64,000 nt of DNA from Acidobacteriota bacterium (GTDB taxonomy: Bacteria; Acidobacteriota; UBA890; WLXD01), in the NCBI GenBank assembly GCA_965248695.1, contig CBDFKD010000002.1, positions 160,001-224,000 of the forward strand. Direction: 5' to 3'. The stretch's first letter is position 1. Each line of letters begins with the position of its first letter. The notes under the pieces were generated by a model that saw nothing but the letters and a program-made list of their open reading frames with translations, was not told the DNA's origin and did not search any database. Below, in pieces: positions 40,742-45,429 of this stretch. The position numbers and the translations under genes were made by a program.

Positions 40742-40831
40742 CAGGCCCGCCTCGATCGGCCACCATCTCGACCAGGGGCATCGGGGCGAGAACGGGTGCT
40801 ACCCTGCCTCCGATCAGGAGGCCGGGCGACG

Positions 40832-42349
40832 ATGAAACAGAGCTTTTCTGCCGCGGCGGCCCAGCTCGTGCATCTGTCGGGCCCGGACCGCGGCCGTACG
40901 CGTCGCGTCTTCGGTACCACGCACCTCGTGCCAGCGAACGGTGGGCGGCTGAAGCTCGTCTACGGAGCACCACAGGTTGACGAGCGACCGATCGCCTCGC
41001 TGGTGCCCGACGACAGAGGGTGGCGCCTGGAGCTCCCCGCCGACACCGACGCGTGGGTAAACGGTACACGCGCCGGAAACCGATCGCTTGGCGCTGGCGA
41101 TCTCATCGAGATCGGTGATCCTGGCCTGCTGCTGCGCTTTCGCCCGCGCCCTCCAGGCAACGCCTACAAGAGCGTTCGCGAGGCATTCGACGACTGCATC
41201 GACTGTGTGAAGCTGGGCGGCAGCGGGATACTCGACAACCTCGGCCTGCTGCTCTGGGGGCCGATGCACGAGCTCACCACCCAAGTCCGCCCGCTGGTCC
41301 GCCTGGCGGTAGTGCTGGGGGTGGCGTCGCTGGTAGCCGGTGTCGGGGTGCTATGGAATCGCAACGCCCGGCTGGAGCGACAGCTCGACGCACAGCTGCA
41401 GCGCATCGAGGGAATGGCGGAGTTGCTGGCGGCTTCCGAGCGTGACGTCTTCACCCTCGACGACTTCACGGACGTGCGGGCGCAGCTCGACTTCCGCATC
41501 AGCGACACGCTGGCGAGGATCGAGGCACTCGAGAACCGCGCTACGGCCCGCGGTCGAGTGATCTCGGAGGCCTCGGCGGCTGTCGTATTCGTCCAGGGGG
41601 CGTACGGTTTCGTGGAGCCGCGCAGCGGGCGACTGTTGCGGTCGCCGAGCGCCGCAGGGGGCGACGTATCGGCTCCGCTCGGGATAGATGGAGACGGTTC
41701 GCCGCTCGAGCTGCGATACACCGGTACGGGCTTCGTACTCGCGGAGACGGGCCTCGTGGCCACGAATCGCCATGTAGCGCTGCCCTGGGAGTCCGAACCT
41801 GCGGCGCGGCGCCTCATCGAGCAGGGCTTCACTCCGACGATGCAACGGCTGGTCGGCTACCTTCCCGACCTCGAAGAGCCGTTCGACCTCACGGTCGTGG
41901 CCGGCCACGCGCAGGCCGACGTCGCCATCCTCCGTCGCAGTGGCACGGCCGCCAGTGGCGCCGGTCTCCGCCTTGCGGCCGATGCGCCCGAGATCGGCGA
42001 CGAGGTGCTCGTCCTCGGCTACCCAACCGGGATCCGGGCAGTCCTGGCGCGCGCCGATCCGACGTTCGTTGCCGGTCTCCTCGCCCACGGACCGGTCGGA
42101 TTCTGGGACCTCGCCGATCACCTTGCACGTGGCGGCTACGTGGCCCCGCTCGCCACCGTCGGCGGCATCGGGCAAATCACGGCGGGTGCCATCGTGTATG
42201 ACGCGGAGACAACACACGGCGGCTCAGGCGGCCCGGTGCTGGCGCTCGACGGTACTGTGGTGGCAGTCAACGCCGCCGTGCTGCCCGAGTTCAGCGGCTC
42301 CAACCTGGGCGTTCCGATTCAGCGCGTCAGAGAGCTGATAACGCCCTAG
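40832..42349 (+). CDS. Degenerate-FHA / TM / coiled-coil / trypsin-like serine protease
   Basis: WVNG...LGAGDLIEIG (FHA C-terminal half); one TM; triad TNRHV, ADVAIL, GGSGGP. Confidence 0.8.
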   Translation: MKQSFSAAAAQLVHLSGPDRGRTRRVFGTTHLVPANGGRLKLVYGAPQVDERPIASLVPDDRGWRLELPADTDAWVNGTRAGNRSLGAGDLIEIGDPGLLLRFRPRPPGNAYKSVREAFDDCIDCVKLGGSGILDNLGLLLWGPMHELTTQVRPLVRLAVVLGVASLVAGVGVLWNRNARLERQLDAQLQRIEGMAELLAASERDVFTLDDFTDVRAQLDFRISDTLARIEALENRATARGRVISEASAAVVFVQGAYGFVEPRSGRLLRSPSAAGGDVSAPLGIDGDGSPLELRYTGTGFVLAETGLVATNRHVALPWESEPAARRLIEQGFTPTMQRLVGYLPDLEEPFDLTVVAGHAQADVAILRRSGTAASGAGLRLAADAPEIGDEVLVLGYPTGIRAVLARADPTFVAGLLAHGPVGFWDLADHLARGGYVAPLATVGGIGQITAGAIVYDAETTHGGSGGPVLALDGTVVAVNAAVLPEFSGSNLGVPIQRVRELITP

Positions 42350-43198: not shown

Positions 43199-44002
43199 AT
43201 GAAGCGACTGCGGCCGCTCTTGGCGGCAGCCCTGCTGGCACTCACGCCGTCGTCAACGGGACTCGGCGCACCCGGCGTCGACAGCGCAGCTGCGGCTCGC
43301 TGCACCTGTATGTCACCGAAGCGTCCCGCCTGCGAGGTGTGGTGGCAGACGGCGGCGATCTTCGTCGGACGTGTGACTCGCCTGGACACCGTGACGGAAG
43401 AAGTGGACGGCGATACCCAGATCAAGATCTTGGCGACCATCCGAGTGCAGGAACGCTGGCGTGGCGCCGAAGGACAGCGTGACGTCGTCGTGGCTACGGG
43501 AGCCGGCGGCGGCGATTGTGGCTTCCAGTTCGCCTTGAACCGCACCTATCTCGTCTACGCCAACCAGTCGTCTCGAACAGGCCGTTATGAAACAGGGATC
43601 TGCTCACGCACCTCCTTGGCTCGGGATGCCGAGATCGATTTGACGTATTTGCGTGGACTCGAAACCGCCGACAAGGTGGTCTCGCTCTACGGGATGGTCT
43701 ATCGGGAGCGTCAACAGCTGCCTCCCGGTACCGATCGCAGCCTCGACATGCGACTGGATCCAGGCGGTCCGGTCGCCGACGTGCGCATCAGCCTGGAGGT
43801 GACGGTCGGCGAGGAACAAACCTACGTCAGCGACAATGATGGCTGGTTCGAGATCGAGGGTCTGCCGGTCGGCCTGTACGAGGTGCAGCTGGACGCGCCG
43901 CAGATCGAAGACACCGCACGCTGGCGGCTTCGGATACCCATCGCCCCCGCCTGTATCTGGCGCAACCTGATCGTCGAACCGCTGCCGCTAGACGGCGGAT
44001 AA
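43199..44002 (+). CDS. Secreted TIMP/netrin-like domain protein with C-terminal carboxypeptidase-regulatory-like beta domain
   Basis: CTC, AIFVGRV, GGGDCGFQF...YLVYA, GICSRT; later SDNDGWFEIEGLPVGLYEV. Confidence 0.7.
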   Translation: MKRLRPLLAAALLALTPSSTGLGAPGVDSAAAARCTCMSPKRPACEVWWQTAAIFVGRVTRLDTVTEEVDGDTQIKILATIRVQERWRGAEGQRDVVVATGAGGGDCGFQFALNRTYLVYANQSSRTGRYETGICSRTSLARDAEIDLTYLRGLETADKVVSLYGMVYRERQQLPPGTDRSLDMRLDPGGPVADVRISLEVTVGEEQTYVSDNDGWFEIEGLPVGLYEVQLDAPQIEDTARWRLRIPIAPACIWRNLIVEPLPLDGG

Positions 44003-44083
44003 CGGTCCCTGCGACGGTCCCGCGAGCGGCCAGCTTAGCGCCCGGCTTGGCAACGGTCCGGACTCCGCCGACGAAGGCGCCCC

Positions 44084-44122
44084 TGCGAGGCGAAGCCAGC
44101 TACTGCCAGGTTTCGCCTCGCA
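44084..44122 (+). terminator. 14-bp hairpin between the TIMP-like gene and the convergent ncRNA candidate
   Basis: TGCGAGGCGAAGCC (44084-44097) pairs with GGTTTCGCCTCGCA (44109-44122), one G-U on the + strand; no U-tract. Confidence 0.5.
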
Positions 44123-44153
44123 CCCCTCGGGCCATTCCGGGTACCAAAAAATT

Positions 44154-44603
44154 GCCCGGATGATTGCCGCGACGGCCTCCCGTGGGGTCCGGAACCCTCC
44201 GTCGCGGCGTATCTCGAGCTTCCCTCGGCTCTACGGCTCGACTTCTGACTCTTGCGAGCCTTCCGTCGACCCTGCCACCGACATCACTCTGACGAACGTG
44301 CCGGTAACTCCGTTGCTCTCCGGCTCCCCCTTGCGGGTTTGCCTTCCAGCTCCGTCAAGGTCTCCCACTCGTCCTTGCGAACGTCTGGTCCACCTCTCTC
44401 AGGCAGTCGCCTTCCACCCTTGCGGGCTTCCAGCGCCTCCCCGGGCGTCCCGGGCTCCCTCTCGAACTCCCGGTTAGCCCCGAACCCTTTCGCATCCCCT
44501 TGCGGTTCCGCTTCCAGGCTCGTCGAGCCGTCTTCCACTCAAGGTCGTTTCACGACCTCAACAGGTTCCGAATCTCCCGTTTGGCCGGGGCAATCATCCG
44601 GAC
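44154..44603 (-). ncRNA. Candidate large structured ncRNA (about 450 nt), family not recognised
   Basis: 5' GUCCGGAUGAUUGCC (44603-44589) pairs with 3' GGCAAUCAUCCGGGC (44168-44154); five C-GCAA-G tetraloop arms; G-U pairs and GNRA loops point to the minus strand; followed by AAUUUUUU; no credible ORF. Confidence 0.78.
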
Positions 44604-44610
44604 CCGACCG

Positions 44611-44639
44611 ATCAAACTATGGACGTACTGTGGCGGCAA
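44611..44639 (-). promoter_or_regulatory. Putative sigma70-like promoter of the ncRNA candidate
   Basis: TTGCCG (44639-44634), 17 bp spacer, TTTGAT (44616-44611); overlapping TAGTTT is an alternative -10; predicted start near 44604 coincides with the terminal helix; AT-rich tract at 44680-44706. Confidence 0.45.
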
Positions 44640-44841
44640 GCGCGACGGAGAATTTTCTTCGCCGGTCGCGCAAGAAGTTCATAAGATCATTTAATCCAAT
44701 ATGTTACGGATCCTCGCCGGCAGCTGAACGCATCTGGTGAACACCGAAATCCGGAGACAGTCAGGAACCCCCAGCGTCGCGAGATGTGTCCGGGGCCGGC
44801 GGCGCGGCGCGCGGCGGTGCTTTCCGAGCGATAATCTGCGC

Positions 44842-45429
44842 ATGAGCGTCCAAGATCCAATCGCTCGGTTCCTCGAGCTTCAACGACGCGCAGAGCGCAA
44901 CGGTGAGCCGCAGCGCGCTACCGCTATGACGCTGGCGACCGCGACGTCCAACGGACGGCCCTCGGCGCGCATGGTGCTGCTGAAGGGAGCCGACGAGCTC
45001 GGCTTTGCCTTCTACACCAACTACGGCAGCCGGAAAGCCGCCGAGCTCGAGGCCAACCCGAACGCGGCGCTAGTCTTCTACTGGCCCACGCTGTCGACTC
45101 AGATACGTGTCGAGGGCCCTATAACCCGCGTCCCAGACGCGGAGGCCGACGCTTACTTTGCCTCCCGACCGCGTCAGAGTCAGCTCGGTGCGTGGGCCTC
45201 CAAGCAGAGCGCGCCGCTCGAGGGCCGTCGCGCGCTGGTCGTGCGTTATCTCACCGAGAAAGCCCGCCGGCTGGGTCAGACGATCCCGCGACCCGAGTTC
45301 TGGGGCGGCTACCTGCTACGTCCCGTACGCATCGAGTTCTGGGAATCGCGCCTCGGGCGACTGCACGATCGCACCGAGTACACGCGCTCAGGAGATGACG
45401 AGTGGCGGCGGGCGATGCTGTACCCGTAG
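44842..45429 (+). CDS. pdxH: Pyridoxamine 5'-phosphate oxidase
   Basis: AMTLAT, PSARMVLLKG, FYTNYGSRK, YFASRP..SQLGAWAS.QS, WGGY, EFW, RLHDR, LYP. Confidence 0.95.
   Translation: MSVQDPIARFLELQRRAERNGEPQRATAMTLATATSNGRPSARMVLLKGADELGFAFYTNYGSRKAAELEANPNAALVFYWPTLSTQIRVEGPITRVPDAEADAYFASRPRQSQLGAWASKQSAPLEGRRALVVRYLTEKARRLGQTIPRPEFWGGYLLRPVRIEFWESRLGRLHDRTEYTRSGDDEWRRAMLYP

Follow-up and report, generated by a model that had tools for sequence, protein, structure and literature searches.

Introduction

CsrB/CsrC, RsmX/Y/Z and CrcZ are abundant stand-alone bacterial RNAs with repeated hairpin modules, a promoter of their own, a terminal U-run and paralogues that differ in size and module number; CrcZ is a protein-sponge RNA that works with Hfq. 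Rod-like 6S RNA, with its paired 5' and 3' ends, may also occur in more than one copy, as in Bacillus, which has two 6S paralogues, 6S-1 and 6S-2. The large ornate RNAs OLE, raiA, ROOL, GOLLD and HEARO exceed 400 nt and carry many arms, and ROOL and GOLLD are reported to be large RNA-only particles. Here we describe an RNA that shares features with each of these groups. It lies in a 64,000-nt stretch of the genome of an uncultured member of the Acidobacteriota (assembly GCA_965248695.1, contig CBDFKD010000002.1, positions 160,001 to 224,000 of the forward strand), which we call the window and number from its first nucleotide. The RNA is about 459 nt long and is read from the minus strand, from 44604 to 44146. 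Two stems close a junction from which its hairpins, hereafter the arms, extend; outside the junction lies a kink-turn-like loop, and outermost is a closing helix, the handle, followed by a U-run.

The likeness to the sponge RNAs covers all the features listed above. However, sponge RNAs carry GGA in a terminal loop or in an A-rich single strand, while here a purine-purine internal loop is set into a capped hairpin. In addition, the RNA has a conserved handle and kink-turn-like core, its genome lacks a detectable CsrA, and it matches no Rfam family. The short relatives of the RNA resemble 6S RNA in being about 177 nt long, rod-like and probably abundant, in pairing their 5' and 3' ends, and in having two paralogues in a class otherwise without detectable 6S RNA, but the central bubble, the sequence hallmarks and the model match of 6S RNA are absent from the family. 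Lineage-specific forms of 6S RNA do exist, an example being the divergent 6S-Flavo RNA, RF01685 (Table 1 of PMC2864571).

Like the large ornate RNAs, the RNA in the window is over 400 nt long, many-armed and strongly conserved in structure, occurs in environmental RNA libraries and has no coding role. Unlike them, it comes from a different taxon, has no match with an E-value of 10 or less to their Rfam models, and appears to have arisen by multiplication of one arm of a 177-nt relative. The kink-turn-like loop has the C-stem, 3-nt bulge and G·A/A·G pairs of the kink-turns of riboswitches and rRNA, and having G at position 3n it is predicted to fold without protein, going by passages in PMC4382518 and PMC4316175; here, though, the loop belongs to a trans-acting RNA with its own ends, and the kink is predicted from sequence alone. 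Finally, rRNA expansion segments also show lineage-specific growth by insertion or duplication of helices at one apical site. The present RNA differs in not being rRNA and in that its added helices are near-copies of one motif.

Results

Repeated arms in a structured RNA

The original prediction, made from the letters of the DNA, listed four hairpin modules and a fifth arm with a 2x2 internal loop on the minus strand of 44238-44522. The letters are as written there, and the minimum free energy (MFE) fold agrees with the five arms. They lie in the middle of an RNA that stands alone, codes for no protein and is highly structured. The MFE of 44140-44620 is -224.9 kcal/mol, compared to -188.1±6.3 kcal/mol in 100 dinucleotide shuffles, none of which was as low (z = -5.9).

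We counted as an arm any hairpin with a GCAA loop, an inner stem of 2 bp or more, an outer stem of 3 bp or more and, between the two stems, 2-4 nt made up of purines alone on either side. Five such arms are found in the RNA region, and the rest of the 64-kb window, 127 kb when both strands are counted, holds one weak match. When the 459-nt RNA was shuffled 2000 times with its dinucleotides preserved, the mean was 0.01 arms, and five were never reached. When both purine loops were set to be at least 3 nt long, a scan of both strands of the 5.9-Mb genome (11.8 Mb) yielded 84 matches, and this RNA was the sole place in the genome with two such hairpins within 150 nt. Hence, the condition named with the original prediction as its refutation, modules at similar density in shuffled sequence or elsewhere, does not hold. 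The motifs GGA and GGAA are not enriched in the RNA: GGA occurs 26 times (21.3±3.0 in shuffles, with the observed count reached in 160 of 2000) and GGAA nine times (5.5±2.0; reached in 153 of 2000).

A run search returned 23 runs from 13 studies, 10 of which were recorded as RNA. Four RNA runs from four studies (X7, X9, X16 and X21) were compared, all as contigs. The interval 44156-44596 is represented by two metatranscriptome contigs in X7, 17 in X9, 20 in X16 and two in X21, with 85-100% likeness, and a single X21 contig of 427 nt spans 44171-44593. Contigs end at 44592-44596 in all four runs and at 44171 in two of them, which is a weak hint of the RNA ends. The word depth, which is unfit for ranking expression, was up to 13,673 in X9, 7,204 in X16 and 224 in X21. 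In the four runs, the flanks 43900-44137 and 44614-44900 are uncovered, and such uncovered parts do not constitute evidence.

Family members and paralogues

The class harboring this genome, here equal to the order, is represented by 26 genomes in two families, f1 and f2. BLAST found the long form of the RNA in all four genomes of the same genus and, by its ends, in 15 of the 26 class genomes, including its own. A pattern scan of metagenomes added 11 loci; one of them (L181) is an evident chance match, two are cut at a contig end and others are duplicates; four new sequences entered the comparison. In a sample of 401 genomes from the phylum, the pattern of the 3' handle and U-run occurs in 25 of the 26 class genomes versus six of the 375 others. 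As the reversed control pattern matches 10 genomes outside the class, the six outside genomes, inspected by eye alone, look like chance. The RNA family is specific to this one class of uncultured, mostly marine Acidobacteriota. We also scanned genome contigs with a 3' motif of 15 specified bases, which gave at least 118 stretches spread over many phyla. Three of them also had a candidate 5' partner but no T-run, and the matches were rejected as chance.

A short type A, about 177 nt long and comprised of the handle, the kink-turn-like loop and a single apical arm, is found in f2 and in one f1 genome, G005. The short apices read GA-GCC-GAAA-GGC-GA and GAA-CC-GCAA-GG-GGA; the latter, from the short form G021A, is identical to the inner part of arm 1 in the window. 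Within f1, the length of the RNA is 178 nt in G005, 343 nt in G008, 440-468 nt in clades g1 and g3, and 502 nt in G007. The simplest reading of this series is a stepwise multiplication of the apical arm within f1, up to five to seven arms on a multi-way junction.

We built a covariance model, R1, from six short type-A RNAs. Its search of the class found two further types, B (about 178 nt, in 10 f2 genomes) and C (103 nt). Applied with strict filters to a 151-genome sample of the phylum, R1 matched five genomes, all within the class; it scores the long form in the window at 20 bits and therefore is unable to find long forms. Types A and B share the kink-turn-like loop and an apical hairpin with a small all-purine loop (GA/GA or GAA/GGA) under a stable tetraloop.

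The fourth type, D, is about 290 nt long and has the same closing handle and a promoter-like TTGACA-N17-CATAAT. Its copy in the same genome lies outside the window (G000:C2:69879-70199, plus strand), and further loci are L213-L219. BLAST found type D in 10 of the 11 f1 genomes, including its own; f2 has no full-length copy, with just three 42-nt matches in G012. Its consensus fold comprises 101 pairs, 14 of them compensatory. In the genome under study, the profile of the 3' handle finds types A and D only. Types B, C and D have no Rfam match.

The f2 paralogues are preceded by an A-tract and a near-consensus TTGACA-N16/17-TAnnnT. Neighboring genes differ by type: type A in f2 lies beside citrate synthase, and type B has a divergent SNF symporter gene as its neighbor. 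In G017 and G024, type C (L166:1501-1603 and L173:365-467, both plus strand, and L195) is followed immediately by a gene for homoserine dehydrogenase in the same orientation; judging by this position, type C could be a cis-acting leader instead of a free RNA.

Covariation of the stems

The original prediction saw covariation in the way the stem sequences change between the modules while still pairing. Both the comparison of modules and the alignment of homologues bear this out. Alignment A4 contains 11 long forms and has a consensus fold of 104 pairs; 97.9% of its cells are paired, and 25 of the 104 pairs show compensatory changes, which none of 500 column shuffles reached. When the partners were slid by 1-3 columns as a control, 34-49% of cells were paired. 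The model-fitted alignment of 21 short A, B and C forms has 91.1% of its cells paired and shows compensatory changes at 33 of 56 pairs (0 of 500 shuffles). A MAFFT alignment of types A and B (A6) was set aside, as it misaligned the 3' strand of the kink-turn-like loop. Among individual arms (Table 1), the stems of arm 4 covary as CGUUC/GGACG, CGCCC/GGGUG and CCUCC/GGAGG, columns 239/248 being CG in six sequences and UA in five, and helix 26 in arm 7 has two compensatory pairs.

The 13 long homologues contain 56 modules, whose terminal loops are GCAA in 34, GAGA in 12, UUCG in five, GGAA in three and GCGA in two. Thus, the GCAA loop, originally described as invariant, is so within this sequence and varies among homologues. 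As for the purine loops, GGAA is the 5' loop in 17 modules and the 3' loop in 14, and GA/AG is present in 16. The UUCG cap also occurs on one arm of the long homologue G006. The equivalent arm of type B reads CGU-GAA-GGC-UUCG-GCC-GGA-ACG, and its cap is UUCG in seven of 10 sequences, UUAG in one and a 5-nt loop in two. These UUCG swaps in type B and G006 indicate that the conserved element is the tandem purine-purine loop, while the tetraloops look like interchangeable stable caps. In one homologue, M179, the inner part of arm 1 has been lost via a 12-nt deletion.

The tip of arm 6 (44285-44298, minus strand) reads UUCGUCAGA. This is the one conserved stretch of the arm domain that is neither purine-only nor a tetraloop; it is kept in g1, G007, G008 and L178 and replaced in the g3 clade. 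We consider it a candidate pairing or recognition site.

Handle and kink-turn-like loop

All family members share a handle with the invariant asymmetric loop GGGAGGCCG-(N)UC-G-C-GG, followed by the U-run. In the window, the handle is a 21-bp helix (44603-44583 with 44177-44154), and the asymmetric loop in its 3' strand is GGCCG-UC-G-C-GG. Among the 11 long homologues, 19 of the 21 pairs are invariant. Across types A, B and C, handle helices 1-2 show compensatory changes at seven of 20 pairs, and the stretch GGGAGGCC...TCG of the 3' handle does not vary in any aligned member.

In the kink-turn-like loop, the C-stem pairs 44572-44563 with 44197-44188, the NC-stem pairs 44556-44551 with 44206-44201, and the strand opposite the bulge has GGA. 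The NC-stem covaries, with compensatory changes in three of its five pairs (columns 52-56 with 422-426). A strict sequence definition of the kink-turn (C-stem, 3-nt bulge, tandem G·A/A·G and NC-stem) finds the motif at the homologous place in 23 of 34 members, a count that has no shuffle control. By type, these are nine of 13 long forms, four of nine short A forms, all 10 type B and neither of the two type C sequences; the remainder are near-misses. The g1 long forms and type B carry G at position 3n, and a passage of PMC4382518 states that 3n = G permits kink-turn folding in metal ions alone. No member of the L7Ae family (PF01248) is found in the genome, and the predicted protein-free folding fits this absence.

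Locus and genomic context

The 459-nt RNA has one copy in its genome. In G004 and G002, two genomes of the same genus, a 1-nt insertion shifts the frame of an 84-aa open reading frame (ORF) that lies within the RNA, and in the g3 clade this ORF is broken as well; we therefore regard the region as non-coding. The flanking genes are the divergent pdxH (44737-45429, plus strand) and a convergent ORF (43199-44002) whose product has a CarboxypepD_reg domain. That the RNA is an independent gene is supported by these flanks, by the synteny preserved inside f1, and by the paralogues, which have other neighbors and near-consensus promoters with an A-tract. The f1 homologues have TTGnnn-N17-TTTGAT placed 6-7 nt ahead of the first paired base, and from this layout we infer a putative promoter. 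The features of the locus are listed in Table 1.

Table 1. Coordinates of the RNA gene and its structural elements in the window.
Feature	Position	Strand	Basis or remarks
Whole RNA gene	44146..44604	-	About 459 nt; putative ends
Promoter candidate TTGCCG-17 nt-TTTGAT	44611..44639	-	Layout conserved in homologues
Handle, 5' strand, GUCCGGAUGAUUGCC-C-CGGCC	44583..44603	-	Pairs with 44154-44177
Kink-turn-like loop, bulged strand: C-stem UUCGGAACCU, bulge GUU, GA, G, NC-stem GUCGUG	44551..44572	-	Fold, motif finder
Junction-closing stems, 5' strands	44525..44543	-	Pair with 44213-44231; helices 5-7 have four compensatory pairs
Arm 1: GGAA/GAAA 4x4 loop, GAA/GGA 3x3 loop, GCAA cap	44481..44522	-	Arm finder, MFE fold
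Arm 2: GAGA-capped hairpin containing purine loops	44443..44480	-	MFE fold; not listed in the original prediction
Arm 3: GGAA/GGAA 4x4 loop, GCCC-GCAA-GGGU	44401..44442 (core 44435-44408)	-	Arm finder, fold
Arm 4: GA/AG 2x2 loop, CGUUC-GCAA-GGACG	44357..44396 (core 44388-44365)	-	Arm finder, fold
Arm 5: GGAA/GGAG loop, AAA/GGA loop, CCC-GCAA-GGG	44311..44354 (core 44350-44315)	-	Arm finder, fold
Arm 6: 15-bp hairpin	44274..44308	-	MFE fold; not listed in the original prediction
Arm 7: GGAA/AGAA 4x4 loop, GGCUC-GCAA-GAGUC	44235..44272 (core 44269-44238)	-	Arm finder, fold
Junction-closing stems, 3' strands	44213..44231	-	Pair with 44525-44543
Kink-turn-like loop, non-bulged strand: CGCGAC-GGA-GGGUUCCGGA	44188..44206	-	Fold, motif finder
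Handle, 3' strand, with conserved asymmetric loop GGGAGGCCG-UC-G-C-GG	44154..44185	-	Invariance, pattern search
U-run after the handle	44146..44151	-	Probable terminator tail or 3' end; almost all A, B and C members have it

At the U-run, 44137-44160 of the minus strand reads GGGCA-U(6-8)-(U)GCCC, and this arrangement recurs at the same place after the handle in homologues; the U-run could therefore be the loop of a small hairpin. In G006, the site has GGACA...UGUCC, a compensatory change. A gene for a trypsin-like/PDZ protease lies near the RNA in the window (40796-42349, plus strand) and also beside the short form of G022 (L158:1713-3023), which is probably a remnant of old synteny.

Comparison with known RNA families

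A cmscan search of the 64-kb window with all 4227 families of Rfam 15 gave no match at the gathering score. On 43900-44900, matches at E up to 10 were just three, all at chance level (E 1.7-6.9). Elsewhere in the genome, the model of small bacterial SRP RNA has two separate matches above the Rfam cut-off, G000:C2:2283459-2283558 (69.9 bits) and 2816376-2816463 (52.8 bits). Full-text literature searches, which did not extend to Additional files 1-6 of PMC2864571 and do not prove absence in print, returned no description of such an RNA. We conclude that the RNA family is new; absent from Rfam 15, it is akin in kind to the sponge RNAs and to the large ornate RNAs, and a member of neither.

Neither RF00013 nor RF01685 matches 43900-44900 at E up to 10, and RF00013 matches nowhere in the genome at the same threshold. 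RF00013 is found in none of 13 class genomes, against 91 of the 151 genomes sampled across the phylum, with the class itself and one unpublished genome (G160) counted in. This made a divergent 6S RNA worth testing.

Among RNA-binding proteins, CsrA (PF02599) has no match at E up to 0.01 in the genome, which is 96.4% complete, while three control genomes matched. The csrA search proposed with the original prediction thus came out negative. The genome also has no match to Ro60/TROVE (PF05731), and no Rfam match to Y RNA was found.

Discussion

We tentatively interpret the RNA as a stable multivalent scaffold or decoy that shows several copies of one purine-loop surface to a partner, an explanation that we consider the best and plausible, though short of probable. 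In such an RNA, the handle and kink-turn would form a compact, nuclease-resistant core, and the multiplied arms would display repeated copies of one surface, the tandem G·A purine loop. The GCAA loops would act mainly as stable caps, and the partner would be an RNA-binding protein other than CsrA, L7Ae or Ro. Multivalent binding sites were already part of the original prediction, and this part is reasonable, since the short relatives have one arm and this lineage has five to seven.

Several observations weigh against a scaffold or decoy. To begin with, no partner protein has been identified, though Hfq, ProQ and other RNA-binding families were not searched for, and no gene for an RNA-binding protein adjoins the RNA in the window or any paralogue. 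The genome-wide module scan found no second cluster and no look-alike sites that a decoy could mimic. G005, an f1 genome, has a single-arm form and no type B; as it manages with one arm, many arms are not required. The strict module finder finds no arms in G007 and two in G008, so the purine loops vary in size.

The remaining points concern the transcript and its structure. Contigs cannot show strand, ends or level, and RNA libraries can contain DNA. Scans of 43900-44900 called no consensus promoter and no terminator; in the latter case, the scan misses the U-run because its "stem" is the long-range handle. The compensatory changes in the long forms mostly separate two deep clades, g1 and g3, and thus represent few independent events. 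In addition, the structure of the long forms was derived from the same alignment on which it was tested, and A7 is a model-fitted alignment. Used without shuffle control, the finder for kink-turns is permissive, giving up to seven matches per sequence, many of them non-homologous. Finally, the kink-turn-like loop deviates in some members: G012A has A instead of G at position 1b, the C-stem is just 2 bp long in five of the nine short A forms, and four g3 long forms have AGA in place of GGA.

A broader proposal, possible if doubtful, is that the class has its own abundant-RNA system, with two to three paralogues per genome and a shared handle that would be read by a dedicated protein or machine. 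The member in the window would then have evolved into a multivalent platform by means of its multiplied tandem-G·A hairpin. Taken as a whole, such a system would amount to a novel type of global regulator made of RNA and protein, or else to a self-organising RNA body.

Alternatively, the extra arms may be comparable to expansion segments. The function would then reside in the core, that is, the handle, the kink-turn and one arm, and the extra arms would be tolerated and add stability or bulk without being separate sites. Indeed, the core is common to all type A and B RNAs, and the arm number varies by genus, as reflected in the lengths of 178, 343, 440-468 and 502 nt. One arm suffices in G005, from the same family, arm 1 of M179 lacks its inner part, and the genome scan turned up no target-like sites outside the RNA. 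Still, we find this explanation unlikely: between clades of about 70% identity, the extra arms retain their purine loops and caps while their stems change by compensation, which indicates selection on each arm and not tolerance only.

Another alternative is an RNA-only architecture, in which GNRA loops and purine internal loops would make tertiary contacts within or between molecules, forming a large RNA-only particle. The numerous GNRA caps (GCAA in 34 and GAGA in 12 of the 56 modules), the very high predicted stability and the lack of a detected protein partner agree with it, as does the kink-turn-like bend, since kink-turns generally mediate tertiary interactions according to a passage of PMC4316175. 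On the other hand, UUCG, which is incapable of GNRA-type contacts, caps the same arm in seven of 10 type B sequences and once in G006 with the purine loop kept, weakening the tetraloop/receptor contacts that the original prediction had offered as its second option. No known receptor of the 11-nt type was seen by eye. Overall, we regard an RNA-only particle as improbable.

The RNAs could also be a lineage-specific substitute for 6S RNA, that is, an abundant rod-like RNA binding RNA polymerase. The absence of RF00013 matches from the 13 class genomes is in line with this idea, and so are the short forms, which are about 177 nt long and rod-like, with strong promoters and two paralogues; moreover, RNase P, tmRNA and SRP RNA are all located elsewhere in the genome. 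However, the consensus folds of the short A and B forms have no central bubble of the 6S type, only small internal loops, the largest being the 6x3 kink-turn-like loop. The sequence blocks that mark 6S RNAs of the phylum (UGAGCC, GGGAGCCC, CACCCACCUGG and GGUUCA) are not found in the family alignments, R1 has no match at 11 of the 12 fetched 6S loci (L152 was left out), and no synteny with canonical 6S loci was found. An RF00013 match is also missing in 60 of the 151 genomes of the phylum, so its absence is common. A substitute for 6S RNA is thus very improbable.

Lastly, the analogy to CsrB/RsmZ drawn in the original prediction, a sponge for CsrA, is close to refuted: for all the repeated GGA-containing modules, the own promoter and U-run, and the paralogues of different length, PF02599 was not found in a 96%-complete genome although control genomes matched, GGA is not above the level of shuffles, the GGAs are in internal loops facing purines and not in hairpin loops, and there is no Csr/Rsm match in Rfam.

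To our knowledge, nearly all well-understood abundant bacterial RNAs (6S, CsrB, tmRNA, SRP RNA and RNase P) come from cultured model phyla. The present family, by contrast, is found across a class of uncultured marine Acidobacteriota, is present in RNA libraries and absent from Rfam, and comprises four paralogue types on one conserved handle. With one arm in 177 nt at one end and seven arms in about 460-500 nt at the other, the series shows how multiplication of a single motif can give rise to a large ornate RNA. Moreover, the family may help to explain how the class lives without a recognisable 6S RNA, and how this genome does without CsrA.

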